This document shows, piece after piece, positions 3,751-50,466 of a stretch of DNA of 64,000 nucleotides; the first letter of the stretch is position 1; each line of letters begins with the position of its first letter. The position numbers and the translations under genes were made by a program. Source of the stretch: Dudresnaya verticillata. Lineage: Eukaryota. The notes beneath the pieces are model-generated. The model had not been told where the DNA came from. It searched no databases and worked only from the letters and a program-made list of their open reading frames with translations. Location: assembly GCA_977862235.1 (NCBI GenBank), contig OZ374563.1, positions 1,240,001 through 1,304,000 of the forward strand, in the 5' to 3' direction.

Positions 3751-3900
3751 AACCATGAAGGCAGAGTAACTTTAGGTGCAAGGATAGATTTTTAGAATAA
3801 GTTATAGAGTAGCGTAACCATTAAGGCACAGTAACTTTAGGTGCAAGGACAGATTAATAGAACAAGTTGTACAGTAGCATATACATGCAGAGGCAGTAAA
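3751..3900. repeat. About 65-bp tandem repeat, 2 copies plus a partial third
   Basis: AACCATnAAGGCAnAGTAACTTTAGGTGCAAGGAnAGATT... recurs at about 3752 and 3817. Confidence 0.8.
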
Positions 3901-10562: not shown

Positions 10563-11150
10563 CGGCCCCTCTGTAAAGCTGAGAGACCAGCGAAGCCAGC
10601 AAGGCTGTTTCCATTGGCCCTGTCGTGCGGACGCGTGTGGACGTCCCAAACGGCCGTTGAGGGCGGATGTAACCGCCACCAAAACGCCCGTCTCGCGACG
10701 TGCGAGGGCGACAACTAATAGCACGCCCCTCCGGCGTCGGGTTCCCCGTCTCGACGAGACCCCATTATCGCTTTCGCGCGAAAGCTGTGAGCGGCGGCCT
10801 ATTTCAAGCGCGTGTGGGCGCGGGCCTCTGCCGTCACCTCCGCCTATCTGGCTTACCACAATCCACGCCGTCGCTTCCTCCCTCGCCGCTGGTGGCTGTG
10901 TTTCCTTCCTCGCTTTTCGGGGACTCACTTCCGTCCCGCGCGCCAGGGCGCCTCATCCTCAAGCGTGTTCACGCGTCGTTTCCGCTTCGCGGCCCAACCT
11001 CTTCACGTGCCGTTGCGCTCTGTCTGAACTTGTGCGCCCTTCTGCCTGACCGTCGTCGTCCTGTGTGCCCGTTGAGGCGCAACTACGCTACCGTCACGGT
11101 TCAAGTTTGCAAGACGCTTCGACGAGGCTTATTCATCCAAGAACTCAATC

Positions 11151-17600: not shown

Positions 17601-18801
17601 GTAAGTGTCTTTCACTGTGATAGCGTTGAGCTTGCGGTAATCGACGCAGAAACGTAGGGACCCATCGGGTTTCTTGACCAGCACTACGGGGCTTGCGAAC
17701 TCCGTGCGAGCAGGCTCGATGACGCCTTCTTTTAGCATCTTGTCTACTTCGTCTTGTTCGACTTGTCTAGCTTTCGGGCCCGACCGATAGGTTTGCGAGA
17801 ATACAGGTTTCGAACCTTCTTGTAGTTCAATTCGGTGCTTCGTCACCTTGATTGTTCCCAGCTGGCCGTCCCACATACCGACGAACGGTCGGAGCATTTT
17901 TCGTACTCGACGACGGTTCGGCTCGGACAAGTGCTCCAGTGCCAAGTCATCGACTGACATTGGAGATGGTGTAGAGGTTTCTGTTTTAATTCCAGGCTTT
18001 GCGCCTTCGCTACCGAGAGCAGCAGCAAGTCCCGCCCCCCACATCGGGGAATGTGTGCGTTCCTTGGGCCGAGCAGGTCACGGCGACCCATGTTTCACTG
18101 CCCGGCGGTAAGTAAGTGCGTGCGGCGACGCGTATTAGTCGCGAGGTAGTTAAAGGAGGGAAATCCATTGGTTCTGAGGGTGGACCTTCACGGGGTATGC
18201 CGCAACGGCGCCTTAGGATAGGGTGTATCGACCCGTCTCGGAGAACGATATTCTGTTTCCGAACGCGTAACCCCTCGACGTGGGTATCGATAAACGTGCA
18301 TCCCAGGATGGCGTCCACCGCAAGTGCCTTGACAACAACAAAAGGTTGTCGAACCGTGTATGAGCCCACGCGTACAACCAGCGAGATGGTTCCCAGTGTA
18401 GTTAGTCTATGACTTGACGCAGACGTCAAGTTGACGATCGACCTGTTCGTCGAGATGCGCTCCTTTTCTTCCGGAGAAAGAACGTCCGCCCGGATCAGAT
18501 TAGGGCCAGCCCCTGTATCCAATACGGATAGTACTCGAGTGAGTTTTTCCACAGAAGTCCCGACGGACGCAGCAACTTTATAGTTGTAGCGTGACAGGGA
18601 ACAGACTGGGTCCTTACAATACTCGTCATACGTACGCCCACGGGGCAAGCCCATGGGGCGGGTTAAGATATTCTTTGGAACAGAAGCGACATTCTCATGT
18701 GAAACCGGTCGATCCGTGAAGAAGCTGTCGAAGCTTGTGCTAGTGAAGCTGCGTTCAGCGAATCGATGGGGGTTCCGATGTAACCTGAGTGATCGGGTCA
18801 A
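14605..18801 (-). pseudogene. pol: Element B pol (protease, RT, RNase H, integrase, chromodomain), broken into three ORFs
   Basis: LDTGAGPN, YLDD, DTDACD, H-x6-H...C-x2-C, SDNGSQF/HPQTNGQTEQFN and YRVRWFQ...DTWEP motifs. Frameshift near 15815 and an internal deletion with frameshift near 18045 relative to D. Confidence 0.92.
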
Positions 18802-21490: not shown

Positions 21491-21960
21491 GTTCAGGTCG
21501 GTCTTTTCGACCTAAACGAAGGATATCGGTCCTGTGGTTGCCTGACGGGAAGTTTTTCCAAGTGGGCAATCTTCTTCAGAACCGTCGTTCTCGGGGTTAC
21601 GGGCGATTCTGGCCACGCGGTCTTTCCGCAATGCGCGCCCGCACAGTCCGTACAAGGACGTATTTTTTTGTACAGGTATTACGATAACCTGTTCAGGTTC
21701 TCCCGGAAGGGGCGTCAATCCGCGACTAGGATGTGCTCGTTGAACGTACTAAACCACCACGGCGGTAGGGGTGCTTGCACTAGATTTGACGTAACTCCAG
21801 CGCTTGATATGAAGCTTAGGGACCGTCGTTACCCGGACGACTAGGGTTTCAACGCCAGGTAGTCGAACCTTGAGATCTTGCAGGGAGAAAACTCGATCCT
21901 TGAAAATTCCAAAGCGATGGACTGACGTTGAGGTAATAAAGGGAGCCGACCCAGAACCGA

Positions 21961-21978
21961 TTCTAGGTCGGGAGACCA
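21961..21978 (-). promoter_or_regulatory. Primer-binding site TGGTCTCCCGACCTAGAA of element B
   Basis: Starts with TGG 1 nt after the 5' LTR end. The identical 18-mer follows the 5' LTRs of C, D and E. Confidence 0.9.
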
Positions 21979-21979
21979 C

Positions 21980-22676
21980 TGTAGTAGTATGGCGCGACGA
22001 GCCAGTAGCCCGCTAAACGGCAAGGACAGCTGTCCCGTGCGCGCACACACCCTAACGAGGGTAGCTCAATGGGGGAGTTGGTAGAGACTTTGAGGGAAAA
22101 GGGAAAAAGGCTAACGTGCCTGAAAGAAAGGGAAAAAGGGGCGGCGCCACCCTAGCACTCGTAGAGTACAAAGCCGTGTGGTACGAGGCTAAAGCTTGTA
22201 AAGCACCTGGAAGGGGGAGTACGGTGAGCCCGTGTAGACCAAAGAAAGGGTACAGACCCGAAACCCACCGTGGGGTTCTATTCAGCCGACCCCTGCTAGT
22301 CAGGGGCGCAATAAATATGGCGAAGGCCGAAAGCGCCTTCGCCGCTATTCCTATTCTAAGCTATTGAAGTTAGCGTTAATAATTACAATGAGGTAGTGAG
22401 CGGTCGTACTCCGCCCTGCGCACGTAAGGTGCTTATGACTCGGGCGCGCTCCTGCGCGTAAGGCCATGGTAAATCAGCCAATCACGGCTAGCCATCTCAT
22501 TGGCGCCGTGCTGTTCCCAGCAATGCCATATGGAGTGGCCAGCAATGCACTGGGCCTTACAGGGCGGCAGTACGGGCGGCGCCTTACAGGCGCATGCCAC
22601 GCGCAATATTACCCGCGCATTACAGGCGCAAAACACGTGTACGTGCTTACAGCCGCTGGCGGCTCATTGTACCACA
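21980..22676 (-). repeat. 5' LTR of element B (697 bp)
   Basis: Direct repeat of 9872-10562, bordered by the PBS and the TSD. Confidence 0.95.
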
Positions 22677-22782
22677 CAGACCCCAAATGTTGAGGAGGCC
22701 CCCTCGATGGCCCTCATCCACGTCCTGACGACGCATAATCGGGTTGTTCCCTACGGATATTCCCCGGGACGAAATCAGGAAG
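22677..22782 (-). mobile_element. Short continuation of copy A gag, truncated
   Basis: Matches the reverse complement of D gag at about 56185-56290. Homology stops abruptly near 22782. Confidence 0.85.
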
Positions 22783-23395
22783 CGTGGAAATACCGGGGGC
22801 CGGAACATGTGGGAGGGTGGCCGGAGATAATAGTCGGTAGTGGAAGAGGGAGCGCCTCGCTCGGAGGAGAAGTGGACCGTTCGAGTCTCATGACAGCACA
22901 CGACAGCGTTATGCGTGTGACCGTTACTGCCAACGCCGCCAGCCACCGCCGACCGTGGCTGCTGAAGTAAATGACACAGCACTGCCAACTAGTGACAGCT
23001 CCAGGGCGCATGCGCTGAGGGAGTGTAGTACGATGATGTGGCAAGTGGGATGTGCCACACGCGCCGCGTTATGCCAGCTGCGGCACCATGACTGTAAGAC
23101 TTACAGAGTTGCGCGCACGCAATTTGCTGCGCGCCGCCGCCGCCGTGCTTCTCCCTCTCCGAGCTCCGAGCACACCCACGCTCCGAGAGTAGTGCCAAGC
23201 CGATTGCGTATCGTATTCCGGCACTCCGCAGGCGGTTGGTAAAGGTCGCTCCATGCGGGAACCAAACGTTTGCAGTCGTAGTGTAGAGGATTATCAGCAG
23301 TAAACACGAGCGCAGAGCTATGCATAGCACCTAGAACAGCGTTAGTTTCGCTCACAGTTGCAAGACATAGGTGTCTGAAGCAGATCTGGCTTTTC

Positions 23396-23435
23396 ATTGG
23401 CTTAGAGGGGCCGTTAACGGCCCCTCTAAGCCAAT
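23396..23435. repeat. Perfect 40-bp palindrome
   Basis: ATTGGCTTAGAGGGGCCGTT|AACGGCCCCTCTAAGCCAAT, about 150 bp upstream of the orphan ORF ATG. Confidence 0.95.
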
Positions 23436-23584
23436 CAAATTCCAGAAAGCGTTTTCTCGTCAGAAGCCCTTCACTCGACATATATGTTTCTTGTTGCGTG
23501 CAGCCGTCCTACCGTCCCCGGGAGTATCACCGCAGCTCATTCAACATACTGCGCTTTCCTTTTTGGTCCTTCGCTCGCCGTGAC

Positions 23585-25291
23585 ATGCCGCCCCCACCCG
23601 CCAACATCCCTCGTACAATGTCTACAGTGTCTGAGAGAGTTCGTGAGTGTGCGGATCGTCTAGTTATCAACCCGAGTCATATCAAAGGGGATGACTGGCA
23701 GTACGTATCTTCTACTCTCAACTCTATTGCGCACATGGCTGCCGTTCTCGAACGTTTTGTGGAAGGAAGTTCGCAGCTGGGAAAGCTTAGGGTAGCAATA
23801 TTTGCTAAACCCATTGCTCGGACGGATGGCACTGTGCCAGCAATAATGTTATGGGGACCTAATACTTCTGTTGTGCCCCACGGTACTGAAGATAACACTC
23901 GAGGTGCGAATACTACGGGCCCAGTTGTTGAAGGCAATTTGCAAGACAGAGATGTCCTACTCCCAAGATCCATCACTGGTCCAAGTACTTCTCGAGACAG
24001 AGGTGTCCTACTCCCAAGACCACTATCGTCACCGATTATTTCTCGAGACATAAATGTCCCACACCCACCTCGAGATGATCAGGAACAAACCGGAGGCTCA
24101 ACAGTAAGGATAACCGAAGAGGCTGCAGCCAAGTGTATGGCACTTCTACTAGATGCAAGTGCTGTGACTAAGCATACTTCATCTAATATTGCAAGGATAA
24201 TAGAGAGCATCAACGGAAAAACCGTGGAGACCGTGTATGGCGCAGTGTTCGCCCTATATAACGAGCGATTGGGACGGGTAGGGGGAGATATATCTGGTAT
24301 GTCTTATCTTTCACTACTCCCAAAAGAATTGCGCGATAAGACTGTTTCTTTTCCGCAGCTAGAGCTGGGAAGATATGGACCGACGAGCACGTACCAGATA
24401 GTTGGAAGACCGAAGTTGGTGAAGATGCGAAACATCCGCAAGGCCAGCAAAGCTACGAAGCTGGAGTCCATCACTCTACTATCTCTTCTAGTAATGATAG
24501 TTGACGATGAGACAATTCGCTCCAACATCGAGGCGGGAGATGGAACAAGTAAGACACGCTATGCCCTACTTCGAGAAGTTGTAGAAGATGTTATGGTTAG
24601 CAAAGCCAAGGATGGGTTTTCTGGAAACTGTACAAATCTAAAGGCTTGTGCAGCAGTATGTGCCGATAAGCCTAAGCCGTTCTGTGATATATACGTTGGG
24701 ACTAGACACGACGAGGAAGAGAAAATGGGAAAGGGGTGCGTGGATCCCTTCACTCCGTATTTGTATGGGAAGAAGGTTCCGGAGGATAGCCTCGTGTTGC
24801 AGTTTACCAGCGTGGAGAAACCTCAGTTACTTTCGCAAACGCAGTACGGCACTGAAGAAGTGGCGAATTTACTGACACTTCCAGTCGTATGGAAGAAGGA
24901 AGCTATTGGGCGTGTAACACTCACCGAATATCCTAATGATATCGGGTCCGCAATTGTTGTGCGAACGGGAGTGGACATCAACAGGGGGCGGAAGAGGAAC
25001 ATGGATATGCGAAATGCTTCTGAACTTTGCGACTTTAAGCCTCCTGCAGGAGGAAACACAGCTGTCCAGCAAAACAGCGGTTCAGGTGGTATTGGGACAG
25101 ATATGTCCCGCAGTCGTGGGAGTGGGATGGAGAAACCAATTTACCCGTTCGCCGAGTGGTACTCTTCTTGCAAGGACAGGAACGTGCTAAAGCGGAAGCA
25201 CTTCGTAGCATTTCCAAAATTTATGCCTGACTTGGTTACTTGTCGGGGTTTCCTCTGGGACGGAGAACATCTACGCTCTATTCATGAATAA
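23585..25291 (+). CDS. Orphan protein (about 568 aa from the first ATG)
   Basis: Long open frame (track 23498-25291) with first ATG at 23585 and an internal 17-aa repeat (DRDVLLPRSITGPSTSR). No domain recognised. Confidence 0.75.
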   Translation: MPPPPANIPRTMSTVSERVRECADRLVINPSHIKGDDWQYVSSTLNSIAHMAAVLERFVEGSSQLGKLRVAIFAKPIARTDGTVPAIMLWGPNTSVVPHGTEDNTRGANTTGPVVEGNLQDRDVLLPRSITGPSTSRDRGVLLPRPLSSPIISRDINVPHPPRDDQEQTGGSTVRITEEAAAKCMALLLDASAVTKHTSSNIARIIESINGKTVETVYGAVFALYNERLGRVGGDISGMSYLSLLPKELRDKTVSFPQLELGRYGPTSTYQIVGRPKLVKMRNIRKASKATKLESITLLSLLVMIVDDETIRSNIEAGDGTSKTRYALLREVVEDVMVSKAKDGFSGNCTNLKACAAVCADKPKPFCDIYVGTRHDEEEKMGKGCVDPFTPYLYGKKVPEDSLVLQFTSVEKPQLLSQTQYGTEEVANLLTLPVVWKKEAIGRVTLTEYPNDIGSAIVVRTGVDINRGRKRNMDMRNASELCDFKPPAGGNTAVQQNSGSGGIGTDMSRSRGSGMEKPIYPFAEWYSSCKDRNVLKRKHFVAFPKFMPDLVTCRGFLWDGEHLRSIHE

Positions 25292-25874
25292 CTGTACTAC
25301 TCCGCGATTTTCATTTGAGAGCGGAATTAAGTCTCTTCAAGTCTGTTGGGTCTTTCTTTAACAGTCTTAAGTGGTTGTGATTTCATTCAACAGGTTGAGA
25401 AATGCCAGACAGATATGTCCAACTACCAGTTAGTCTGTCGTCGACGAAGAAATAGGTTTGCATATTGGAACCAAATCTCTACTATCTACTGTCTTGTCTC
25501 TTTCGACACTTCTTAAAACGTTGGTGGTAGATGCCCTACTGTTGTAGTTGTGAACCCCCGTGGTGTCCAAATTTCAAGCCTAACTTTCCAGGAAGACATT
25601 CAGTAGGAATGCTTTTGATATAATGTATTTATTATCTGAGCTCCTAGATATCTAAACATATCTGAACATATGTTCTAGAACATCTACTCCTGATTTAATA
25701 AGTAGAAGTGTTGAAGAAGACAAGTCATTAGACATTACTAGTTCACTATCCCATGGGATATAAATTCATTTATTAATGTTAGCACAAGAAATCTTATTTT
25801 CCATGTTTCCTCTTCACAGATGATGATGGACTTAGTCACATGATATCAATTCATATATCTCCTGTTTGTTTGTT

Positions 25875-25978
25875 GAGATTGTTGAACACCAATTGCTATT
25901 GAAAAGCCGATTCAGTAGCTACTCATGAGATTGTTGGACACCAATTGCTATTGAAAAGCCGATTTAGTAGCTACCCAT
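25875..25978. repeat. 52-bp tandem duplication
   Basis: GAGATTGTTGrACACCAATTGCTATTGAAAAGCCGATTyAGTAGCTACyCAT at 25875 and 25927. Confidence 0.9.
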
Positions 25979-26024
25979 AATAGCGGTGACCATTAATGAC
26001 TAGTCATTAATGGTCACCGCTATT
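25979..26024. repeat. Perfect 46-bp palindrome
   Basis: AATAGCGGTGACCATTAATGACT|AGTCATTAATGGTCACCGCTATT, extendable to 25974-26029 with one mismatch. Confidence 0.95.
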
Positions 26025-26552
26025 TTGGGACTGAGTCATCAAGATTCTGTCTACATTCATTTCCTGTTAGATTCAATATCGATATCGGGTATGGGAAAGG
26101 TAATGAATGTGAATCTTTACCTCATGCGTTTACTCAGTATTTATTCGTGAACTCATGAGAAAACGTATACAACAGCAGAACCTCTATGACCAACTTGATA
26201 AGAAGCGTTGTGGCAAAGTCTACCCTATGACAATTTGTTATAGTCCACCAAGTCATGACTAAGAAACTAACAGGACGTATATGTCTTACTATCAAGACAG
26301 TATCTGGTCACATGTGATGTCGCATATGTCATATATGATGCATTACATGACATGCGATTAGACGCATCAAGACGTATATGTCCTGTTAGTTTCTGACTTG
26401 GTAATGGTAATAGACTCATAAGAAGTTTCAAGAAGGACAACCCAGTAGATTTTATCTGAACCCAAGTACTAACTACCTATTTTGCTTGCTGTAGCTGCAT
26501 TAATACTATAGACGCAACAGGTGCATCTCAGTCCTAGACAATCAAAGAAAGA

Positions 26553-29500
26553 CTACTCCAAGTCATGTTCCGAGAAGAGGCTGGTCCTTTCCTTGAATTT
26601 CTGGGAGGCCTTTGTTTTGGCTTTGATGTTGGCCACAATTGTGTGGTATGCCAAGAGAGAGATATATTTGACATGTCCAGAGTTTCGTAGTGATGCGCGA
26701 ATTGTTTGAATACGACTGTTTCGCTGCTCGTGGGACACCGTATTGCTTGAGTCTAACTCCGAGTAAATCTTCGGGTTATAGGAGGGAGAGCAGGACTTGT
26801 GATTCCCTATATGAAACTTGTCGCTAACGATTGTGGTTCCCTCCAAAGCCCACCAAAGGGAGTTGACTGCACTCGAAAAAAGACCGCACGAAAAGTCATA
26901 GACAATGAACCGTGGGAAAGAAGCAAAACGTGCTAGTACCATATCCAACACAACCTTCGGTCCTTCGTTTCTGTACAAGACCTTGGCCCCGAAGGTTACT
27001 GGACTCCGGCATGAGCAGGATATCGTCATGGCTCCTGGTGTAAAGCCCTTCGTTTTCTGGGAGTAGTCTTTTGAGCAAGGTCCCAATAACTCCGCTTTGG
27101 GAGAAGTTATTTCGTCTCTGTTGAACGGAAGCGGCCGAACTTGAGGGCGACCAGGGAAGTAATGACCAGTACACAAAGCCTCCTGTAGTGATGAAGGCCA
27201 ACCGTTGGAGGTGTGCGGGTACCTTTCAGCCATCCGTTGCTTTAGGACATGTATGTCCTGAGAGTTCCACCGTTGAGCGTATGTCACAGCTGTACTCTTA
27301 AGCACAGGGGAGTCATAGTACGAGTAGAATTTTGATACGCAGCGCGCTGTGCATATAAAAACAGAACCGAACGCGTTTCTCAGCTTCTTCCCGACCTCTC
27401 CATTTCTATTCAACTCAATGTGTCGAACACTGGCGAGAGCTGACTGGAGAAGACGGCAGCTATCTAGAAAACTTGTTTCACCAGTCTGGGAATTACCCAG
27501 GCCTTGAGGTGTCTTCAGTGCATTGGCCAGATCTTCAGCTTCTTGATAGAGACATATATGTCCCAGTGCCACTAAAGAAGTAATATCTGACCGTCGAACA
27601 AACTGGCAAACAGGACCTTGTACGAGCATTCGATATACGTTCTGTAAATCCTTGCATACGTCCCTGTCCCATTCGGTCAGCACGGTAACAAAGGATGCCC
27701 AAGGCACACCCTGTCTTGCAACACGCCTTTTTGAGGCATGTGTACTTTCCAACTCAGAAATCTTCGTATTCGTCCGGCTGATTACTTCTGAATGCCTTCC
27801 ATATTCTGATATAACACTCTGCGAAAGAGTGGAGAAGAAATATTGAAGAGATTTCAAAAGTCTGTAGAGCAAAGTACTTGTACAAAAAAGGCTTTCCGTC
27901 AGATTACGGAGAGGGAGCACGTAGTTGTGCTCTCCAACATCATTTGAATAGTCATTCCTTCCATTTCCACACATGGCTTCTAGACAGAATTTATCTAGCA
28001 CATCTTCACCAGAAATCAAACGAATGAACGTACATGTATCTGTGAGTGATGTTGTTGTACATGATAGAGAATCTCCCTTTTGACAAGATAGTATCATCTT
28101 GATTGTCTTCTCTCTGCGGAATAACCCTGAGAGCGGGCGATGAAGAGAACCAACTCGCGCCCTTGATACCGGAACTGGGTCACACGGTTCAGCAATATTT
28201 TTTAACCGCACTTGCTTGTTTTTCAAGTATCCAAGTTCTATCCCGTCAATGCAAAGCGCATGAATATTATCTCCAATATGGTCATCTTGAGACATACATG
28301 TCTCACAAGCAAACAAACTCTTCTCTGGTTCCATGGTCATCAGCTTCAGCATCAAGGTACAAAGGTCTTGCAGTGTTCGAGTTGATCTTACCGCAGTGTC
28401 GTTTGCAGAAGGGATAACACTACTCCTCACAATTCCCATAACCTGCGAGTGGTAGTGCCTCAGTCGACTGTTAAGTGTTCCATTGCCACTTACAACTCCA
28501 GTTAGTTCACGCCGTAAGAGGGCATGAGTAGCCCCGCTTGTCATGTTCATTAAGAGTATACAATGATCTCTACCATCGGCATGTACCTTTCTGGCACAAT
28601 GCTTATTGGAGCAGTCAAATTCCTCGACATGCATTCGGCAAGGACCGAGTGTGCACATAATGACACCACCTTTCCACAATTTCCTAGTCTTCGGGTTCTT
28701 GGCCTCCCCGCACGTACAATGCGAAGGGACCAGGATAAGGTAAATCTCCTTTCGCCTTGCAGTATCAGCAACCTCCTGATCCACAAAAATGGACCGGAGA
28801 CAATTGACTGGTGCCAGTGGCAGACGTGAAAGACAGTGGGACATATCTGTCTCAAGGTTTGTCGCTGGATGTGGAGTTATTTCTACTTCCTCCTCCTCTC
28901 CAATTGTACCAACGCATGAGTAAAGCTGACGTGTGTGCATACATCCACCGGAACACACTGTATCACAAAATGCACACACGAAGAAAGAGTTCTTCACGAT
29001 CCGAATGGGAATAAAATGTATCGTTCCGGGGACTGGGAAGTCAACGGACGTCGAAAGCAAGAAGTGTTTCCTTCCGAACATATCCTGGGCGCTTGGGTAC
29101 TCTTCCTCATTCGTTGCCCCTACGGCATGTAACATAGTCTGACATAGGTGCGTTATAGCTTTTCCGCAGTCTCTCACACTGGCACCACATAAACTCGCGA
29201 GATTAGACAGAACCTTCTTAAATCCTTGTACATAAATACACATATCGTCAAGATCTGGCATCCCATTGTGTACACGGAATTGGGTTATGCCCACACATGT
29301 GCAATACACAATCCCGTCTTTTCCTATCCACGTACTCACCACGTGACGGTCCATTGATTTTGCTCCTGTAGCTCCAACTTGAGAGAACGGTAAACGAGTG
29401 CAAATACACAGGGTTGACGTTTTTGACAACACATGAAACCACTTCTTCTCGTGCTTGGCTATTGGGAGCAACCCTTCGAAGTGCTGAGACATACTATGTC

Positions 29501-30017
29501 CCCACGTCGACGGAGACACATTCGCAGCGGGAACTCCTACGACAGCAATCGATGATGAGTTAAATTGGGACACCAAACGTTCCCTCTTCCCAACCCCTTC
29601 AAACAATCCCAAAAGTGTGCGGCATGCAAGGGATTCGAGAAGAGGTGGGACCCGGGCTCTCTTCTCGTCCACGTTTCCAGTGTACTTGCGACGTCCCATT
29701 CCTCTCTTCGAACCTGGCCTGTCCTGGCGCACAACATCCAATGTGAACGTCATATTCGAAGCACCAACCGTCAAGGGTGCATTTTCAGTGGACTGGACCT
29801 GTTCTTGCGACCGTTCCGCGACGCAGGAAACACTTTCTGCCATTTCTCGCAATGTTTGCTCTTTAAACTCATTGCTTTCCGAATGGCTCATGGAATATTG
29901 AACGTCGGGGACACATATGTCTCGCGGGTTACATTCTTCCGCTGCACCTTCAAGGGTAGAGAGGTGGTCCTGTAATTCCGAATTGGTCCAATCCGGTGAA
30001 GGGTCTTGTTGCGACAT
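26553..30017 (-). CDS. KDZ (Kyakuja-Dileera-Zisupton)-type transposase with Cys-rich zinc-binding clusters, 1154 aa
   Basis: C-terminal signature CSK...TPGAMTISCSC...EGP...IVYDFSC...VSDKFHIGNHKSC...NTVSHEQRNS. Upstream LCIDG is a candidate first catalytic Asp. Several Cys clusters (YCTC, CAFCD...CMH, HCTCG...CTLG...C-x4-C). Frame intact. Confidence 0.8.
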   Translation of the reverse strand: MSQQDPSPDWTNSELQDHLSTLEGAAEECNPRDICVPDVQYSMSHSESNEFKEQTLREMAESVSCVAERSQEQVQSTENAPLTVGASNMTFTLDVVRQDRPGSKRGMGRRKYTGNVDEKRARVPPLLESLACRTLLGLFEGVGKRERLVSQFNSSSIAVVGVPAANVSPSTWGHSMSQHFEGLLPIAKHEKKWFHVLSKTSTLCICTRLPFSQVGATGAKSMDRHVVSTWIGKDGIVYCTCVGITQFRVHNGMPDLDDMCIYVQGFKKVLSNLASLCGASVRDCGKAITHLCQTMLHAVGATNEEEYPSAQDMFGRKHFLLSTSVDFPVPGTIHFIPIRIVKNSFFVCAFCDTVCSGGCMHTRQLYSCVGTIGEEEEVEITPHPATNLETDMSHCLSRLPLAPVNCLRSIFVDQEVADTARRKEIYLILVPSHCTCGEAKNPKTRKLWKGGVIMCTLGPCRMHVEEFDCSNKHCARKVHADGRDHCILLMNMTSGATHALLRRELTGVVSGNGTLNSRLRHYHSQVMGIVRSSVIPSANDTAVRSTRTLQDLCTLMLKLMTMEPEKSLFACETCMSQDDHIGDNIHALCIDGIELGYLKNKQVRLKNIAEPCDPVPVSRARVGSLHRPLSGLFRREKTIKMILSCQKGDSLSCTTTSLTDTCTFIRLISGEDVLDKFCLEAMCGNGRNDYSNDVGEHNYVLPLRNLTESLFCTSTLLYRLLKSLQYFFSTLSQSVISEYGRHSEVISRTNTKISELESTHASKRRVARQGVPWASFVTVLTEWDRDVCKDLQNVYRMLVQGPVCQFVRRSDITSLVALGHICLYQEAEDLANALKTPQGLGNSQTGETSFLDSCRLLQSALASVRHIELNRNGEVGKKLRNAFGSVFICTARCVSKFYSYYDSPVLKSTAVTYAQRWNSQDIHVLKQRMAERYPHTSNGWPSSLQEALCTGHYFPGRPQVRPLPFNRDEITSPKAELLGPCSKDYSQKTKGFTPGAMTISCSCRSPVTFGAKVLYRNEGPKVVLDMVLARFASFPRFIVYDFSCGLFSSAVNSLWWALEGTTIVSDKFHIGNHKSCSPSYNPKIYSELDSSNTVSHEQRNSRIQTIRASLRNSGHVKYISLLAYHTIVANIKAKTKASQKFKERTSLFSEHDLE

Positions 30018-30594
30018 AGTGCACGGACTCCAGAAAGGCTCACCGTATACCGTATTGTATACGGTAGCACAGACGATGTGGTAGCCTCGCTATGCTCACC
30101 GGAGTCATTCCAACTTTTCTCAGTGTTCTGTCAAGGATAGCAACGATAGTTTTCAAGGATTGTAAAACGGCTTAGAAATGTTTTCATTGTTGCCGTAACG
30201 TCTGTCTCAGCTGCGTGGTCATATTGCATAATCCGTATATTGATATGCATATCAGTGTCTTTGGCCCGGTTTCTAGGCTATTGTATAAATACACAAAAAT
30301 CTGCAGGACATATAAGTCTCACTCATTGGCTACATGCATCATAGGATGCATCCCATGCATGCATCTCGCGAGTGTGGTACCTGATACGTATCAGAAGCAC
30401 GTGCGAGATGTCCGTCTCCCGCCATTTACTATGGAACCGAAACACTTGCGCACCCCGCGTCCCCGGCAGAGGTATATTTCATTTCGACAGCCAGTACGGG
30501 AGCCATACTCCTTAGCCTTCCCACCGCGATGCTGCAAATTCCCCAACACCCCTTGTGTCCCATGCTTGCCAGGTCGCATATTTTACGGGCAGTC

Positions 30595-32124
30595 ATGGCT
30601 TCCAACGACGCTTCCCTTGACCCCACGCAACAGCGAGCATTTCAATCCTTCAAGAAAGGTTTCTCTCTTGCCCTACTAGGAGGTGCTGGAAGCGGGAAGT
30701 CGTTCTTGGTGGAGAGAATCTTGCGACATGCTCGAAAAGAATACGGTGACGAATTGGTTGCTGCATGCGCGTACACCAACAACGCTGCCTCGAGCATGGA
30801 TGGAAGGACTATATTCTCACTGTTCGGAATTCCTGCTAACTGGCCGCCCACGAAGGAAATATTTTGTCGACACGCTCTTGAAAAGGCTTGGAGGCGGGCT
30901 GAGCTGGCTCGCTTGGAAGTATTGGTAATAGATGAAGTGTTCATCCTCACCTCAGAGATTTTAGAAGGAATCGATGAGGTATTGCGTCGTACGGGCACAG
31001 CGGGCCTGCCGTTCGGCGGTAGGCAGGTGCTTTTGGCTGGTGATCCACTTCAACTTGGACCAATTGAGCAGGATTGTTCTCATCCACATGAGAATAGACC
31101 GGTTCATCTCTCGCGTCCTTGGCACTTAACCTTCGGATGTTTCGGCACCGGAGTTCTTTGTATCCTGAAAGACAATCATCGACAGAATGGCGATCATATC
31201 TTCTTTGACTTGCTGCAGCGCATTCGGGATGGGACGTGCACGGAGCAGGACATACAATGTCTCAACGAGACGGGAGTTGATCCACAAAATGAATCGCCGT
31301 CTCTGATCCCTACGCACACGCAGTTGTTCTTATACAGGAAAGATGTATCTGCCTATAACCAGTCTGTTCTGCAGCGTATCGAGTCGCCACTCCACACGCA
31401 CAAAGCCCAGGACATATATGTCTTGTCAAATGCGGACTGGGTAGTGAAGCGGTTGCGAAGCGCTGCCTTAGATGATGTGCATATGAAAGTCGGTGCCCTG
31501 GTAATTCTGACTCGCAAGGCGGGCCCTTATATGCCTGGAACTGCAGTTGTGTTAACCGAAATCGAAGTGACAGGAAGAGGGGACGTGCAACACTTAAAAT
31601 TCAGGCTTCCGGGAGATGGAGAAGAGGAATACCAGTTGCGCCCATTGCGGTTCTCGGTGCGAAACAGATCCGCACAAGTCGTCGCGATTCGTACCCAATA
31701 TCCGTTCATCCCTGGTTACGCTGTGACAATTCACAAATGCCAGGGACTCACTCTGCAGAATGTATGGGTGGACTTCAGTAACGCGCAATGGAAACCTCCT
31801 GGACTGGTCTACGTCGCACTGTCACGTTGTACTTCATTCAGAGGGCTGAGAGTTACAGGTTTGACAAAAGAACACGTCACCGCACGCCCGGAAGCACTGC
31901 ACTACCTTAGAAATTTCGTCAAGGGTTTTCGAAGTCATTACCCACACCGATTTGTGTCCATCCACGGAGACGACCCCAAAAACAGCGAAGACATTGCAGA
32001 TGATGGCAACGGCGAAAATAAAACTCCTCTGCGAGGCACTATTCGAGTTCTACGATCCTCACGAGGACCGCTCCACGCAACACAGCCACTTGCGGAGCAA
32101 GCCCGAAAGAGGCCACGGATTTGA
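30595..32124 (+). CDS. PIF1-family SF1B 5'-3' DNA helicase
   Basis: Motifs GGAGSGKS, GRTIFSLFG, LVIDEV, PFGGRQVLLAGDPLQLGPI, NHRQ..D..F, RTQYPFIPGYAVTIHKCQGLTL and GLVYVALSR. Start placed at ATG 30595 (track ORF begins 30529). Confidence 0.93.
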   Translation: MASNDASLDPTQQRAFQSFKKGFSLALLGGAGSGKSFLVERILRHARKEYGDELVAACAYTNNAASSMDGRTIFSLFGIPANWPPTKEIFCRHALEKAWRRAELARLEVLVIDEVFILTSEILEGIDEVLRRTGTAGLPFGGRQVLLAGDPLQLGPIEQDCSHPHENRPVHLSRPWHLTFGCFGTGVLCILKDNHRQNGDHIFFDLLQRIRDGTCTEQDIQCLNETGVDPQNESPSLIPTHTQLFLYRKDVSAYNQSVLQRIESPLHTHKAQDIYVLSNADWVVKRLRSAALDDVHMKVGALVILTRKAGPYMPGTAVVLTEIEVTGRGDVQHLKFRLPGDGEEEYQLRPLRFSVRNRSAQVVAIRTQYPFIPGYAVTIHKCQGLTLQNVWVDFSNAQWKPPGLVYVALSRCTSFRGLRVTGLTKEHVTARPEALHYLRNFVKGFRSHYPHRFVSIHGDDPKNSEDIADDGNGENKTPLRGTIRVLRSSRGPLHATQPLAEQARKRPRI

Positions 32125-33002
32125 GAATTATCGAGCTGGTGGGGGAAAACATGAGACAGATAAGTCCTACAAGGAGCTATCTCATTTTTTCAAGTAAGTG
32201 TAGGGGACAGTAGTATAGTATGCAGAGGTAGCGTAAAACAAAATTGGTAACGTCTAGCGAGGACATAACTGACGGCTCTGAAAACTTCACTGGAGAAGGA
32301 TCCTTTTGTGGTACTGGGATTTTCTGTTTCCGTTTTATATCTGAACCTCTTCAACTGCGTCTAAACGGAGCAAGGAATCATCTCGGCTCCGCACGTAGAC
32401 GTATATACTGCGAAATAAATTTCAAGCAACTGCAATACATGTAGTAATTGCTTTGTTAGATAGGGAAATATTTATGTTTACGGTCAACGAAAAATGCTTA
32501 TGTTCCTATATTTATTTTTACGGCCAACAAAGAGATAAACACAATTGAACGCAGAAATATTACAGAAAGAAACAATGGTTTTAGAAGCATGGGCATATAT
32601 TTATTTTTGCGTTCAACGCAGAAATAATTACCTTCAAACAAATGCGTTCGAGGCAGAAATAAATATATGCAATTCGGAAATAAATATATGGCCAAATTAC
32701 AAGCGTAGGCACATATGTATTTTTGTCTTCAGCGTCAGCGTAGAAATAAATATATGCAACCCGGAAATGATATATTTCAAGTTGTTTCTTAGAAACAATT
32801 TATTTATGCGTTCAGTGCATAAATAAATATGTGTCGAATCCTACCAAGCTGCTGCGCACATCTGTACGCATTCACAATTCACAAGTCAAATGGCTTTCTC
32901 ATTTATCACGGGACATATATGTCCTACATTCAAGTCAACTTGGTTGCAAGCAGGTAAATCCATGGATCAATTGACGATCCACGTTGTAACCTATAACGTG
33001 TC

Positions 33003-34982
33003 TCACTGATGACGGTCGGAATCACGGAAGCGACGCGGCTTCTTTCTGGAACGTTTAGGATGGCCTCCACTTCCTGCACTTCCGTCCGTGCCTTCGGGAG
33101 CACTTCCGGACTCGGACGCGCTCGCAGTTTCCGGAGGGGCACTCGTATTAAGCTCCTGCGTGGTACTGTTTGGCGCACCCGCTCCGCTGCTGGCTCCGAG
33201 TGTAGCACCCAATTTCGAGTCGTCTTCGGGAACCGCTGAACCAACACGAGAGGGTACCATCTTACCTGAGACCTTCTCTGTCTCAGAGTTCATGGTAACC
33301 GGTTGGCTCTCGGCGCCTGCAGCTGCAAGGCCAGGGGCAGGTTGACGTGTACGAGCGCTACGCCGCACGACCGGTGCCATAGCAGGGTTGGGCGTAGCTG
33401 AACCCGGAAGAGAGGTCGCGGACAACATATTTCCCCTTTTCTTCTTCCTCGGCGGAGATGATGTTCCCGAGTCAGCGTGCGACGGCGTAGATGCCAAGGT
33501 ACCTGTACCTCTCTTATTCTTCCTCGGCGGTGATGACGTCCCAGAGTCTGCCGGCGGCGTAGATTGCTTTTCCGTCGGGACCTCTTCGTGGGACTTATCT
33601 GCTGCTCCGTGGACGACTGACACAGCGGGCTTATCACCACGAGGCGCAGCACCCTGGGCCAAGACGGGAATGTCATCACGCTTAGAGTCGCATTCGGTGT
33701 CGGGGATGGCAACTTTTTCCTGAGACTTGTATGTCCCATTCTCGGGCTTAGCGCCCTCGTCAGACCCCTCTTCTGTCGGCATTTCCGCATTGGCTGCCGT
33801 ATCCACCTCCGGCATTCTGATGCTGCCGTTGTGGTCCTTTTCTTCGTCAGTGTCGCGGTCTTCCTTGACGACATCCCCACTTGTGGTTTTGTTTTCGTGA
33901 GACTTATGAGTCCTACGAGTGGCCGCGATGTCGGCTTTCCCAGCGGTCTGAGTGCGACTGCTGTCCGAAGCAGTATCAGAGGGATCCACATTATCTTCCT
34001 GGGACACATGTGTCCCAGAAACCTTGGACACATGTGTCCCAGGAACCTTAGACTTCTTCTCAACATTTCCTCCGCTACCTTCTTCCAAAGGCCCTTCGCG
34101 CTTTCCGGGTTCCTTCTTCACCACAATAGGTGGTTTCCATGATAGCGGCACAACTTCGTAGCCTCGAAGGAAAAGTTCCAACCTTAGACGAAGTTTTAGC
34201 ATATCGCTTTGCTCAAACTTCGGGACTGTGCCGCGCTCCAAGAATTCCATCACCCACAGTACGAATACTCCGCAAGAACCTGTGTCCTTCTGACGGGGAT
34301 AGTTAGCGCGAACTATAATTGGGAAGTCCACTGCATCGGTGTTGCAGGTGTCGCTGATGTACTTCTTCAAGTTTCCCATTGCCGCGATATACTCCTTCGC
34401 GACGGAGTTGAAAGAGTCGTACACGATGAAGAACTTGCGGCGAATATCAGCGACGAACAGAATCCAGTGGTTATGTTCTTCAGCATAGTAGGGGACGAAG
34501 AGGACATCAATATCCTCCGGTTTCCAGACGGCGCCCCTTGCCAGCCAGCGGCTCACGCTTGAAAAGTTGTATCCAAACTTCAGCTTCGTCAGCAGGAAAG
34601 GAGAAATGATGTGGATCCTGTTACCAGCACCGTCGGCCTTCATCCGACGCTTGTTCCTCTGGCAGAGCATGTGCCAAAAGCCTTCGATGATGTTGTCGGT
34701 TATCCAGTCAGAGTTTCCATAGGAACCGGGACCCATGGCTCTAACGCGCGAAAAGTCTGTCTCGGCGATGTGAACTGTGCCACACCTGACAGGACCGCGG
34801 TGGGACCTGAGATAATTCTTCTCATTCTCCCTGAAGACCTTCAAAACAGGGTCATCACGGCCATCTCCCTCCAGCTCGAGCTCGTGGGACATATCTGTCC
34901 CGCCCCCCCATAGAACAGAGTTGTACGCACCGTGAGCACTGCGGTTCACGGTGGCCTGGCTGGGGCGGGAGGATTGAGACAT
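33003..34982 (-). CDS. Ulp1/SENP-family (peptidase C48) SUMO protease with a long disordered C-terminus
   Basis: WITDNIIE, VP...HNHWILFV, YDSFN and RQKDTGSCGVFV give an intact His-Asp-Cys triad plus the oxyanion Gln. Start is uncertain: ATG 34982 was preferred because the track's longer N-terminus is translated tandem repeat. Confidence 0.9.
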   Translation of the reverse strand: MSQSSRPSQATVNRSAHGAYNSVLWGGGTDMSHELELEGDGRDDPVLKVFRENEKNYLRSHRGPVRCGTVHIAETDFSRVRAMGPGSYGNSDWITDNIIEGFWHMLCQRNKRRMKADGAGNRIHIISPFLLTKLKFGYNFSSVSRWLARGAVWKPEDIDVLFVPYYAEEHNHWILFVADIRRKFFIVYDSFNSVAKEYIAAMGNLKKYISDTCNTDAVDFPIIVRANYPRQKDTGSCGVFVLWVMEFLERGTVPKFEQSDMLKLRLRLELFLRGYEVVPLSWKPPIVVKKEPGKREGPLEEGSGGNVEKKSKVPGTHVSKVSGTHVSQEDNVDPSDTASDSSRTQTAGKADIAATRRTHKSHENKTTSGDVVKEDRDTDEEKDHNGSIRMPEVDTAANAEMPTEEGSDEGAKPENGTYKSQEKVAIPDTECDSKRDDIPVLAQGAAPRGDKPAVSVVHGAADKSHEEVPTEKQSTPPADSGTSSPPRKNKRGTGTLASTPSHADSGTSSPPRKKKRGNMLSATSLPGSATPNPAMAPVVRRSARTRQPAPGLAAAGAESQPVTMNSETEKVSGKMVPSRVGSAVPEDDSKLGATLGASSGAGAPNSTTQELNTSAPPETASASESGSAPEGTDGSAGSGGHPKRSRKKPRRFRDSDRHQ

Positions 34983-35103
34983 ATCTGTCCCACGCTTCTG
35001 TGTCGCCGACTTCTCCGCTTTTGGTGCGATGTTTTTCACCTCAACTACGGTTATCTTCTCGGTATCGGCGTGAGTAGTATTGGTCGCGGCTTTTGTGTGG
35101 CAT

Positions 35104-35340
35104 AGCTGTAAGACCAGCTGTGCCACGCACGCGCAGCTGTAAGACCAGCTGCGCCACGTGTGCACTGCTGTGCGCACGCTGTCAGCCGGTGGCGCCGAAG
35201 CCCCGCTGAACTGTAAGGAAGTGCACAGTGGCGCGCGCAGCTGTAAGACCAGCTGCGCCACGTGTGCACTGCTGTGCGCACGCTGTCAGCCGGTGGCGCC
35301 GAAGCCCCGCTGAACTGTAAGGGAGTGCGCAGTGGCGCCC
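35104..35340. repeat. 104-bp tandem duplication upstream of the Ulp1 gene
   Basis: GCGCAGCTGTAAGACCAGCTGCGCCACGTG... at 35131 and 35235, with a partial copy at 35104. Confidence 0.9.
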
Positions 35341-35829
35341 ACGTGTACACGCGTTCGCGTGTGACACTGAAACTCCCATGTAACTTCTACGTTTATTGTT
35401 TTGTAAGTGTACAGCACCCTCTAGTGTAAGCGGCGGTCGAACGCCCTGCTGTCCCGCGCGCTGTGCGCACGCACTCCGGCGCAGAGCCGTTGAGTGCGTG
35501 ACACGCGCGCGCGCACTCCGGCGTCGAGCCGTTGAGTACGTGTGGACCGTTCCGCCTACGCGCGCCCCCGGGTTACCGTTACCCGTACGCGTCGACGCGT
35601 GTTGGGGCGCGCCGGCGCACCTCCCGGGTTGGTGCCGCCGCAGGCCCTGTAGTATATCTATTAGTCGCCCCTCTGGGCTTCAGTAAACCAAGGGAAGCCA
35701 GTCTACGCCAGGCTTGCCCTTTCTGCTTTGCGTTTCTTTCCCAGTCCTTCGCCCTACGGCTTCCCTCTTTCCCTAGCCGTCTAGGCTTTCCTTTTCCTTT
35801 CCCTATCGTCGGCTTCGTGCCGCCCCACG

Positions 35830-35890
35830 AAACCCCTAAACCCCTAAACCCTAAACCCCTAAACCCCTAAACCCCTAAAACCCCTAAACC
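35830..35890. repeat. Interstitial telomere-like tract (AAACCCCT)n, 7 units plus a partial
   Basis: Five AAACCCCT, one AAACCCT and one AAAACCCCT, flanked by an exact 67-bp direct repeat (35764-35830 and 35889-35955). Confidence 0.9.
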
Positions 35891-36230
35891 TCTTTCCCTA
35901 GCCGTCTAGGCTTTCCTTTTCCTTTCCCTATCGTCGGCTTCGTGCCGCCCCACGACGGGGACGCAGGGATCCGGCCGCTGCCGCCCGCGTACGGTACGCC
36001 CCGTGCACGCTCAGGCTTCGACGCCGTTGATCCGCGACCGTCGACGGCGCGCGCGGCCGACACCACCGCTCTACCACCACAGCTACCACCCTTCGACGGG
36101 TCTGGATGCGACTGACCGACCAGCGCAGCTAGACGTCAGTTCGACCTGACGTCTATGCCACACTGGTCTCCCGACCTAGAAGTCGCAGAAGACCCTATCA
36201 CCTCTCGCGTCGACGCGATCGAGGCCAAGA

Positions 36231-38651
36231 ATGCCGCCGCTACCTACTTCGGCCGCTGCCGGTCCGGCAGACGCCGTGGCAGGTGAAGTTGGCGGTCGAC
36301 GCACTTCCTTGCTGAGTAACGTCGGCGTCTCAGGAGCTCCCCTAGAGGAACCGCGCATCGAGCGCAGGGCGGCTATAGCCAAGGCCCTAGGAGGGACAGC
36401 GGTCTCTGCGACCGACCTCCAGCTACTCTACGAGGAGACGATGGACTCACTTTCGGAAGTGTACGACACCTGCATGGCCTCAGTCGCAGACGCGCGGGCA
36501 CAAGGTCAACGTGACCTGGAGTCGCTTCGACGCGGAACTCTCGCCTCCGTCGAGGAAGGATTAACCCGAACTCAAGGGCTCCTCGACGAGCTACGCCAAC
36601 GCGTTGAGTTGATTGAGCACGCACCGGCGCGGTATGACCGACGGGCGCCTAGCCCGTCGCCGGTGCGGAGCCGTCCTCCGCGATCGCCGTCTCAAGCGGA
36701 TCCGGTTCGCGAACTGGCCAAAGCCCTCCTCGCTGAGCGTCGTGCTCAGCGAAACCCTTTTTATCCACCGGCCTCTCCGCCTAGGAGTGGGCAAGGGTCC
36801 CCTCGCCCTACAAGAGATGACGACCCCTTCTACGGGGTCGACCCCAAGCTACTACAACGCGCCCTCGACGGGTGCGGGGTTGGAGGGGCGTCTAGCCCCT
36901 CACCACACGAAGGTCCCGTGTCGGCCTACTGGCACTGGGGGCCATTGATGCCGGGCGTCGAGCCGCTGAGCACCTTGGTACCCGAATTCGCGAAGGCGAT
37001 CGACTACCGCTCCTATCGTCTAGACGACATAAGCCAGCGGGACAATCAGCAGCAAGTCTGCAATGGCAACACCGCCAAGATTGTCAGCCGGATGAAGGCT
37101 CTCATGCCGCGGCTAGATCGCTACGACGGCAAGGAGTCCATCCGCTTGCTTGGCCTGCTTAGACAGCTACGCCAAGCCTTCAACGGCGTCGGCCTGTCGG
37201 AAGGCGCAGCAGCGCGAGTGGTGTCCTGGTTCCTAGACGGAACGGCATCCCAGGTGTATTCGACTCACCTTTTCTCGGGGTTCCGGGCGACTAGTCGCGG
37301 CACCCCCCCGTGCTGGGCCTCGGTAGTCAATACCCTCGTCGAGAGGTTCGTCACCGACGACGTGATCGCCGACGCGCACGACCGACTGACGACCGCCCGG
37401 CAGCGGGACGCCGAGTCAGAACTCGAGTTCGCCTCTCGTCTAGAGGGCTACGCAGATGACTGTGCCGGCGTCTACTCCGACGAGAACGTGACGCACCAGT
37501 TCCTGCGTGGTCTGCTTCCGACCACCCGACCCGCAGTAGCGGAGAAGGTAAGGCAGATGCCAATGGTCGAGCAGACCAACTTCAGTACCGTTCGTCGGAT
37601 CGCCCACAGTGAGGGCACAACCTACCGCGCCCGCATGGCCAAGGCGTCGACGCCGGCCATCGTTTCGGGGCGCGGTAGGGGAAGCAGTTCGCCAAGCGGC
37701 CGCACGCTGCTTATCGAGGGACCACACACACCCGATAGGGAAGCGGCCTTCGACGGCACGATGTTGGTGGCGCCCGATGACGATGGTTTCGAACCCGTCA
37801 TGGTCGTGCCCGCGCTGTCGACAGCCGGGGCGGCGCAAGTCGAGGAGACCCTCGACATCTCAGGACGCATCGACGCCGTCCTGCCGAGGAGGATCCCTCC
37901 GCTCACACCGGCGCAAGAGGCCATGGCCCGCGCTGTCACCCCTGATCAACAGGGGTGGTACATCTGCTGGTTCTGTCGAGAACTTGGGCACATCATGTAC
38001 TCGTGCCCATTCCTGACTAAGGAACAGCAGTTGTACTGCGCGTATGCGAACTGCAACCATAGACTGGAGACGCAGCCGCACGCGCGCAACAACTTGCAGC
38101 AGCTCATCGACGAGCGCATGCCGGCAGGCGCCAAGGCAAGTTACCCCGCAAGACGCTTCGACGCGCAGCGGGGTGGGGCCCGACGCTTCGACGATAGGGG
38201 TCCCCCGCAGCGCTTCGACGCGCAAAGGTATCGCGGGGAGCCGCGACAGTACCGCGGGGATCGTCGAGATCCGCGCCGCGAATACCGAAGGGCAGACGTC
38301 CCGCGGTTCCTCACTCGCGACAAGCGGGTCGGGTTTGACGACCAAGCCGGTCGCCAACCTCGGGCGTCGACGCCCTCGAGGCCCGACCCGCAGCGCGAAC
38401 TGCTTCGGGCAGTGATGACCGTGCAGGAGCACACCGGGCTAGCAGCCGACGAGTGGCTCCCGCGAGCGCTCGACGCGCAGAGCAAGGGCGAGTCCGCCAG
38501 GGGGCAGGTCGAGCAGCCCCCGCTCCTTTTTGACACGCCGCCGCGATCGACGCGAGGCGCCGGCCCGGCCCCTAGCCAGCCAATGGGATCCGAGGAAGAA
38601 AGCTCGGATTCCGAAAATAATTTTGACCGGATCGAACCGGAAAAAGAGTAA
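36231..38651 (+). CDS. gag: Element C gag, 806 aa
   Basis: Intact ORF after the PBS. DYRSYRL...YDGKESI...GLSEGAA block is shared with the other gags here, knuckle CWFCRELGHIMYSC. Confidence 0.88.
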   Translation: MPPLPTSAAAGPADAVAGEVGGRRTSLLSNVGVSGAPLEEPRIERRAAIAKALGGTAVSATDLQLLYEETMDSLSEVYDTCMASVADARAQGQRDLESLRRGTLASVEEGLTRTQGLLDELRQRVELIEHAPARYDRRAPSPSPVRSRPPRSPSQADPVRELAKALLAERRAQRNPFYPPASPPRSGQGSPRPTRDDDPFYGVDPKLLQRALDGCGVGGASSPSPHEGPVSAYWHWGPLMPGVEPLSTLVPEFAKAIDYRSYRLDDISQRDNQQQVCNGNTAKIVSRMKALMPRLDRYDGKESIRLLGLLRQLRQAFNGVGLSEGAAARVVSWFLDGTASQVYSTHLFSGFRATSRGTPPCWASVVNTLVERFVTDDVIADAHDRLTTARQRDAESELEFASRLEGYADDCAGVYSDENVTHQFLRGLLPTTRPAVAEKVRQMPMVEQTNFSTVRRIAHSEGTTYRARMAKASTPAIVSGRGRGSSSPSGRTLLIEGPHTPDREAAFDGTMLVAPDDDGFEPVMVVPALSTAGAAQVEETLDISGRIDAVLPRRIPPLTPAQEAMARAVTPDQQGWYICWFCRELGHIMYSCPFLTKEQQLYCAYANCNHRLETQPHARNNLQQLIDERMPAGAKASYPARRFDAQRGGARRFDDRGPPQRFDAQRYRGEPRQYRGDRRDPRREYRRADVPRFLTRDKRVGFDDQAGRQPRASTPSRPDPQRELLRAVMTVQEHTGLAADEWLPRALDAQSKGESARGQVEQPPLLFDTPPRSTRGAGPAPSQPMGSEEESSDSENNFDRIEPEKE

Positions 38652-50298: not shown

Positions 50299-50466
50299 GT
50301 GTTCTTCTATTCGTAGGTTACCAAAACGGAGTCAACGAGTGTTTTGCCTTGTCCTGCCTTTACACCAATACGGAGTTGTCACGAAGCTGACCTCCTACCG
50401 AAGCGGAGTCCAACGGAGATTCTTCTACCTTGACGGCCTTCTAGGTCGGGAGACCAAAAAGATGTG

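Follow-up and report, generated by a model that had tools for sequence, protein, structure and literature searches.

A candidate KDZ-type DNA transposon with a stand-alone PIF1 helicase gene in Dudresnaya verticillata, and its relatives in metagenome contigs

Results

Four genes between LTR retroelements

The window analysed here is a 64-kb stretch of the Dudresnaya verticillata assembly GCA_977862235.1 (64,000 nucleotides; contig OZ374563.1, positions 1,240,001 to 1,304,000), and window positions are counted from its first letter. Between Gypsy-type long terminal repeat (LTR) retroelements, it carries four long open reading frames (ORFs) in two convergent pairs, which encode a predicted KDZ-type DDE transposase, a PIF1-family helicase, a Ulp1/SENP-family protease and a 568-aa protein (Table 1). 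Both this arrangement and the flanking LTR retroelements, which were confirmed by Pfam and by repeat analysis of the window, agree with a first-pass annotation made from the sequence alone, in which the four genes had been read as a transposon cassette lying among broken retroelements; one of the flanking LTR elements, however, keeps long gag and pol frames. The divergent gap between the transposase and PIF1 genes, put at about 580 bp in that annotation, is 511 bp long if PIF1 starts at its first ATG and 577 bp long if it starts at the next one (30595). The latter, which is the likely start of PIF1, aligns with the point where the closest relative begins.

Table 1. Features of the four-gene unit and its flanks (window positions)
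Feature	Position	Strand	Basis
568-aa accessory protein	23585..25291	+	ORF; family by exhaustive profile search
KDZ-type DDE transposase (predicted), 1154 aa	26553..30017	-	alignment, ESM Atlas, motifs
PIF1-family helicase, stand-alone, 531 aa	30529..32124	+	Pfam and alignment
Ulp1/SENP-family (C48) cysteine protease, 659 aa	33003..34982	-	Pfam and alignment
Palindrome RGAC-N6-GTCY, 23 dispersed copies	23363..34990	.	motif counts
Near-perfect hairpin, 62 bp, adjoining the first palindrome copy, by the presumed left end	23385..23446	.	
Second hairpin, in a convergent spacer	25974-26029		
AT-rich repeats, in a convergent spacer	32460-32833		
5' LTR of a Gypsy-type retrotransposon (element C), outside the unit, in place of its right end	35096..36162	+	
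Left flank: retroelement A LTR (21978-22683), plus truncated gag remnant of a different retroelement (22677-22782)	21978..22782	-	

The window copy of the unit is damaged, with an early stop in its transposase and with its right end replaced by an LTR. Its left end lies somewhere between about 23090 and 23363. On the right, 113 bp separate the Ulp1 ATG from the upstream LTR of element C, whose first base is 35096; the stretch 35096-35400, previously counted within the cassette, thus falls outside it. The 5 bp before this LTR differ from the 5 bp after the 3' LTR of element C (45057), and this lack of a shared duplication indicates that the junction was rearranged and the right end of the unit lost. 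The Ulp1 frame stays open to the LTR junction (38 codons, weak evidence by itself), and the 5' region of the gene, which abuts the LTR, may have been cut. The ORFs had also been described as uninterrupted, which was overstated: besides the LTR cutting the frame on the Ulp1 side, the transposase has a TAG stop where its relatives have Trp, with a conserved C-terminal Cys motif lying beyond the stop, and a His to Tyr change in its first SWIM-like finger. No nested ends or duplications were found between the four window genes.

The transposase

The transposase is laid out as two SWIM-like Cys/His clusters, a CxC4-like cluster (residues 425-529), D591, a long insertion, D1041xxC1044, H1069-x3-H1073-x2-C1076 and E1097; the widely spaced D-D-E, the DxxC and the H-x3-H are what we take to be the KDZ catalytic motifs. 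In an alignment of 46 sequences, conservation was 1.00 at D591, D1041 and C1044 and 0.98 at H1069, H1073 and E1097, and the CxC4 region of the relatives mapped to residues 425-529 of the window protein, with four invariant Cys. When the last 225 residues (930-1154) were compared with the ESM Atlas, 25 of the 30 matches were clusters with the Pfam KDZ domain (PF18758) on 47-50% of their members; matches of this C-terminal region scored 0.97 (202-205 of 256 features), a score whose calibration for partial proteins was not measured.

Two AlphaFold models were poor (pLDDT 39) and gave no Foldseek match at E<=0.001, most of the top rows being retroviral integrases, while a PDB sequence search with the transposase profile returned nothing usable. 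None of 138 pattern matches in viral contigs was related to the transposase. The relatives with species names came from Porphyra umbilicalis and Pyropia yezoensis, and the element lineage likely belongs to red algae. A transposase tree was built from the 46-sequence set, which holds the new lineage only and no reference KDZ sequences.

The PIF1 helicase and the Ulp1 protease

The helicase matched Pfam PF05970 (E 1e-22), with Walker A and B and the later helicase motifs intact, and was nearer to yeast and human PIF1 (E 5e-34 and 4e-31) than to Helraiser (1e-13). With Pfam, no HUH Rep domain was detected in any of the ORFs, and PIF1 is encoded by a separate gene, as had been proposed. The protease, likewise predicted to be a stand-alone enzyme, matched Peptidase_C48 (PF02902, E 2e-19) and aligned with SENP1 (E 7e-11); it has the predicted catalytic set of a His-Asp-Cys triad and an oxyanion Gln, followed after the protease domain by a 390-aa low-complexity tail.

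Related loci in metagenome contigs

One scan of metagenome contigs, from which all the related loci were taken, yielded 27 loci with relatives of the transposase. They comprise seven high-GC families together with the loci L001 and L018, and are thus not independent of each other. In all 17 loci whose DNA extends at least 3.4 kb beyond the transposase, PIF1 was found downstream of it; these loci cover the seven high-GC families and L018, and the overall count is 18 of 27. Among the ten shorter loci, the start of PIF1 is visible in one, and another (L020, 3.2 kb) diverges short of it. The gene order in the high-GC elements is transposase, PIF1 and then a convergent gene, termed here gene Y. L001 has a frame-split homologue of the 568-aa protein beside its transposase (E 8e-16 and 1e-13), and L018 has the end of the transposase, PIF1 (40% identity, E 1e-95) and Ulp1. 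These two loci overlap by 277 bp at 99.6%, which places all four genes in a second low-GC family, in a different order. The co-occurrence of four genes expected from the first-pass annotation thus holds for L001/L018, but the high-GC families seem to have three of the genes only, and Ulp1 appears to be optional, having been seen only in the window and in one other family (L018).

Three relatives could be fully delimited, spanning 11.2-12.2 kb. One 11,215-bp element is present in both L015 and L017, at 99.65% identity and in flanks that are only 26-27% alike; the element in L014 is 12,204 bp long. All three are bounded by perfect 7-bp target duplications, with CAAG...TTC ends and imperfect 26-bp terminal inverted repeats (TIRs) that match at 19 of 26 positions in register, the terminal base being mismatched. 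An 8-bp duplication was dropped, as it was perfect in only two of the three and put the TIRs out of register (7-8 of 26 matching). Upstream of the delimited element in L014, at 669-3572, lie a second PIF1 and part of a gene Y, from a copy that either adjoins the element or is interrupted by it. In L018, related AT-rich repeat blocks (6444-6640 and 8540-9200) lie on either side of a 2-kb insert downstream of Ulp1, and the end of that element may lie beyond the contig.

Between families, the transposase had a dN/dS of about 0.04-0.11, PIF1 one of about 0.10-0.27 (with dS close to 1 or higher) and gene Y one of about 0.05-0.31, the near-identical pairs being too close to judge. These ratios indicate purifying selection on all three core genes in the relatives. 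Genes are retained across lineages 27-40% identical, and several PIF1 copies are frameshifted or stop-bearing. Transposase and PIF1 trees of the seven high-GC families, compared with the window and L018 excluded, had three of four splits in common, all three well supported, the fourth being without support in PIF1. Since kin share history, this agreement shows co-inheritance rather than function.

The 568-aa protein and gene Y

Taken alone, the 568-aa protein gave an empty word-based search and no usable ESM Atlas match. An exhaustive profile search retrieved 58 family representatives (E<=0.001), including the two L001 pieces that had been part of the query, and the gene is thus not the orphan it had been called. 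H197, Y241, P246, C349, C355, C359, W436, Y520, Y526, H539 and W558 are conserved family-wide. No Pfam family fell below E 0.01 in the 50 members scanned, the PDB held no relative for the family profile, and no homology was found to the extra ORFs of the neighbouring retroelements. The four named members are hypothetical proteins of Gracilaria domingensis. A hint came from family member P0136 and transposase P0007, both of which list a longest contig of 11,845.

Gene Y is likely a distant homologue of the 568-aa protein, as judged from profile matches. In 14 of the 16 high-GC loci with a complete PIF1, the family profile matched the last exon of the gene, which lies downstream of ORF Y; the matches were weak (E 0.003-0.4) but fell at the same profile positions. 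A profile-profile comparison of the family with this exon gave a probability of 74% (E 2.7e-5). In a reciprocal search with the exon profile, 27 family members outranked every transposase among 137 proteins. As Ulp1 is optional and the gene order varies, the core of the element would be three genes rather than four, namely the transposase, PIF1 and a protein of the 568-aa type.

A dispersed palindrome

A 14-bp palindrome, RGAC-N6-GTCY (consensus about YRRGACATATATGTCYYR), occurs in 23 copies in the unit against three in the remaining 52 kb of the window. Its GAC-N6-GTC core, the best of about 960 dyads tested, was counted 25 times in 23300-35095, where 3.1 were expected, and the GAC/GTC dyad at other spacers gave 0-5 copies. 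Fifteen copies of the palindrome lie inside the four ORFs, in varied reading frames, compared with 2.3 in 1000 synonymous shuffles (maximum 8), and part of the copies arose by tandem duplication. Spanning all the genes and the spacers between them, the palindrome marks the four genes as one unit. The first two in-frame ATGs of Ulp1 (34888 and 34978) both lie within palindrome copies, and the motif itself may thus have created the start that was annotated.

L001 has four copies of GAC-N8-GTC within its first 270 bp, and the termini of the high-GC elements repeat TTGAC. The LTR elements of the window have dyads of their own (observed/expected): GCC-N6-GGC in 9870-22683 (30/6.5), GTCGAC in 35096-45057 (29/5.5), CCG-N3-CGG in 45058-53200 (26/3.5) and TGG-N7-CCA in 53214-58146 (12/1.5). 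Several of these resemble what we take to be interrupted restriction-modification sites, and dispersed palindromes that differ from family to family may be typical of the genome as a whole.

Discussion

Comparison with known elements

The unit resembles KDZ elements in its transposase of more than 1100 aa with Cys clusters and a widely spaced D-D-E, its large size, its accessory genes and, in its delimited relatives, a target duplication in the 7-8 bp range. It differs from them in lying under the Pfam thresholds, in the relatives' combination of a 7-bp duplication with imperfect TIRs and CA...TC ends, and in its accessories, which are PIF1 and a 568-aa-type protein (with a separate Ulp1 in some cases) rather than TET/JBP or PAG2/PAG3. 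The Zisupton of fish carries Ulp1 as a fused domain. Kyakuja is reported to have a 7-bp target duplication and CA..TG ends without TIRs, while Zisupton and Dileera duplicate 8 bp (PMC12730594). Zisupton elements with the accessory genes PAG2/PAG3 are described from Bangiophyceae (bioRxiv 2025.02.11.637652), and giant KDZ elements with accessory genes from brown and green algae (PMC12477816, PMC8226300).

AcademH and KolobokH are likewise DDE transposons that retain a helicase gene (PMC10799480), but theirs are DEAD/Helicase_C proteins of superfamily 2, whereas the new lineage has a PIF1 of superfamily 1B and an unrelated transposase. Helitrons share with it a PIF1-family helicase in a mobile element; in contrast to them, the new lineage has a separate helicase gene nearer to cellular PIF1 and no HUH Rep, and its relatives have TIRs and target duplications.

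The VANDAL and KAONASHI elements of Arabidopsis combine a transposase with accessories that include Ulp1, and a family-specific short motif that is partly tandem-duplicated (PMC5735166, PMC13317346). In VANDAL elements, VANC binds to short motifs that tandem repetition has multiplied (PMC5735166); for Ulp1, PMC13317346 describes the role in Mutator-like elements as unknown. The VANC motifs are non-palindromic and lie in non-coding DNA, whereas the window motif is a 14-bp palindrome that also occurs in coding sequence, and no sequence link to VANC was found for the window proteins in a search limited to Pfam. The giant Plavaka and Mutator elements of red algae, which bear PAG1-3, are also multi-gene; they encode a conserved accessory protein whose function is unknown, and their inverted repeats have been proposed as self-binding sites (bioRxiv 2025.02.11.637652). 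In contrast to these PAG-bearing elements, no methylase, SET, ParB or 2OG domain was found in the window unit.

A KDZ variant with PIF1 is likely undescribed in print. The words 'helicase', 'SUMO' and 'Ulp1' are absent from the main text of bioRxiv 2025.02.11.637652, and the available portions of PMC9297572, PMC6431247 and PMC5751038 contain no KDZ-PIF1 or KDZ-Ulp1 case. No KDZ or Zisupton element with PIF1, a helicase or Ulp1 turned up in searches of the open literature, most of which covered titles and listings; Repbase and the subscription literature may already contain such families.

Proposed mechanism

We propose, with a probability of roughly 60%, that the unit is a large KDZ-type DNA transposon with a core of transposase, PIF1 and 568-aa protein, and with Ulp1 in some families, which moves by cut-and-paste with PIF1 aiding the refilling of the gap. 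That the genes belong to one KDZ-type mobile unit can be held with great confidence, and it is nearly as probable that PIF1 serves the element; between gap refilling and other roles for PIF1, we would give even odds. The transposase would pair the ends via GAC-containing subterminal repeats and insert them with a 7-nt stagger. After excision, PIF1 would drive sister-templated refilling of the 11-12 kb donor site and so raise the copy number; yeast Pif1 supports long-tract repair synthesis in break-induced replication. A protein encoded by the element, most probably the 568-aa protein, would dock on the palindrome as a dimer and so mark the element for protection from silencing, as VANC does for VANDAL; the palindrome might equally be read by the transposase or by none of the element's proteins. 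Ulp1 would strip SUMO from chromatin or from element proteins and would be dispensable.

The single mobile unit envisaged in the first-pass annotation is supported by co-occurrence, delimited relatives, purifying selection and largely matching trees, but not its fixed order of four genes, Ulp1 being absent from the three delimited relatives and the order differing in L001/L018. The roles suggested there, gap repair for the helicase and anti-silencing for the protease, stay hypothetical.

Several results weigh against this proposal. Failure to match KDZ profiles had been named beforehand as grounds for giving up the call of a KDZ transposase, and with HMMER no match to Pfam KDZ (PF18758) was obtained for the window protein, for its C-terminal 215 aa, or for nine close and 44 further relatives. 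CxC4 (PF18717) was found in 11 of the 44 relatives, with a best E of 2e-5, all under the curated cut-off of 26.9 bits, and the window protein itself had no Pfam match to it. The KDZ call is kept in spite of the Pfam result because of the ESM Atlas matches, the sub-threshold CxC4 in relatives and the conserved catalytic motifs. In the 64-kb window, neither termini nor a target duplication nor a second copy of the element was found; 25 direct repeats of 8-9 bp are shared between the two flanks, none of them backed by an inverted repeat, and the termini of the high-GC relatives have no credible match anywhere in the window. The delimited elements belong to a distant high-GC lineage, with about 40-48% identity in the catalytic region, and Ulp1 was not found in the high-GC loci, these three elements included (best E 2.5). 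As to gene Y, its long ORF gave no significant match to the 568-aa protein in pairwise and first profile tests, its exon profile does not match the window protein itself, and the reciprocal search was not independent, since the exon peptides had been picked with the family profile. Finally, no dispersed dyad comparable to that of the window was seen in the 11 related loci tested. Together with the neighbouring elements' own dyads, this means that the motif may stem from a process acting across the genome instead of from the proteins of this element.

Alternative explanations

The same unit could instead follow a copy-out or replicative DDE route, in which PIF1 unwinds the element after a single-strand cut and the 568-aa protein is an obligatory structural partner instead of a factor against silencing. 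PIF1 and a 568-aa-type protein, but not Ulp1, are present in every family with enough sequence, the ends are asymmetric (19/26 matches and a mismatched terminal base), and the AcademH and KolobokH lineages of DDE elements also retain helicases (PMC10799480). On the other hand, clean 7-bp duplications suit ordinary staggered integration, there is no Rep/HUH domain, and KDZ elements without a helicase are mobile (PMC12730594, PMC12477816). We consider this route unlikely, though less so than the explanations below.

It is improbable that a plain KDZ transposon has passively captured a host PIF1, a Ulp1 and another gene, in the manner of Pack-type cargo, with passengers of no use to the element and with the palindrome as a mutational by-product. 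Such capture would fit the variable gene order and orientation between lineages, the patchy occurrence of Ulp1, the frameshifted or stop-bearing PIF1 copies and the dyad excess in the neighbouring retroelements. It fits poorly with the low dN/dS of PIF1 and gene Y and with genes kept across lineages only 27-40% identical, whose trees agree; for PIF1, passive capture appears largely refuted by these comparisons. That the window genes are a host cluster that became domesticated, or fragments of several elements nested in each other, to which the missing termini and duplication, the rearrangement of both flanks and a gene order unlike that of all relatives seen might point, is highly improbable in view of the single motif across the four genes and their spacers, the joint presence of the four gene families in L001/L018 and the absence of nested ends between the genes.

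Implications

If the cut-and-paste transposon with a serving PIF1 is the correct reading, it would add a PIF1-dependent branch to the DDE transposons with helicases, whose members known to date have enzymes of superfamily 2. Its compact, delimited and recently copied relatives (99.65% identical) would allow the retention of helicases in cut-and-paste elements to be tested directly. The 568-aa family defines an unannotated protein family tied to PIF1-bearing KDZ elements, and the palindrome in coding DNA is a testable candidate for a self-recognition tag. A wider picture, which we regard as doubtful at present, would be that of an old red-algal KDZ lineage with an obligatory PIF1 and new protein, in a host where each transposon family, DNA transposon or retroelement alike, carries along its entire length, coding sequence included, a private palindromic self-marking tag read by element proteins.

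Other features of the window

Within the 5' LTR of element C, 7.6 copies of the telomere-like repeat AAACCCCT lie at 35830-35890 between two 67-bp direct repeats. The two LTRs of this element (35096-36162 and 44896-45057) have only the last 163 bp in common, and 1.6 kb of non-coding DNA follows its pol. In LTR element A, whose LTRs are 98% identical, a 731-aa ORF without a Pfam match (11151-13346, + strand) runs antisense to pol in the part richest in GCC-N6-GGC, and is a candidate retrotransposon accessory gene. Long hairpins and a 65-bp tandem repeat at 2582-2721, 3751-3974 and 4439-4619 resemble the spacers of the four-gene unit, without the GAC motif, and may mark where a further large DNA element ends. 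Towards the right of the window, 58292-60439 (+ strand) is a likely host gene for a Rab-GAP TBC protein (E 1e-49), and an ORF of 430 aa at 62220-63512 (- strand) shows a weak C2H2-like finger.

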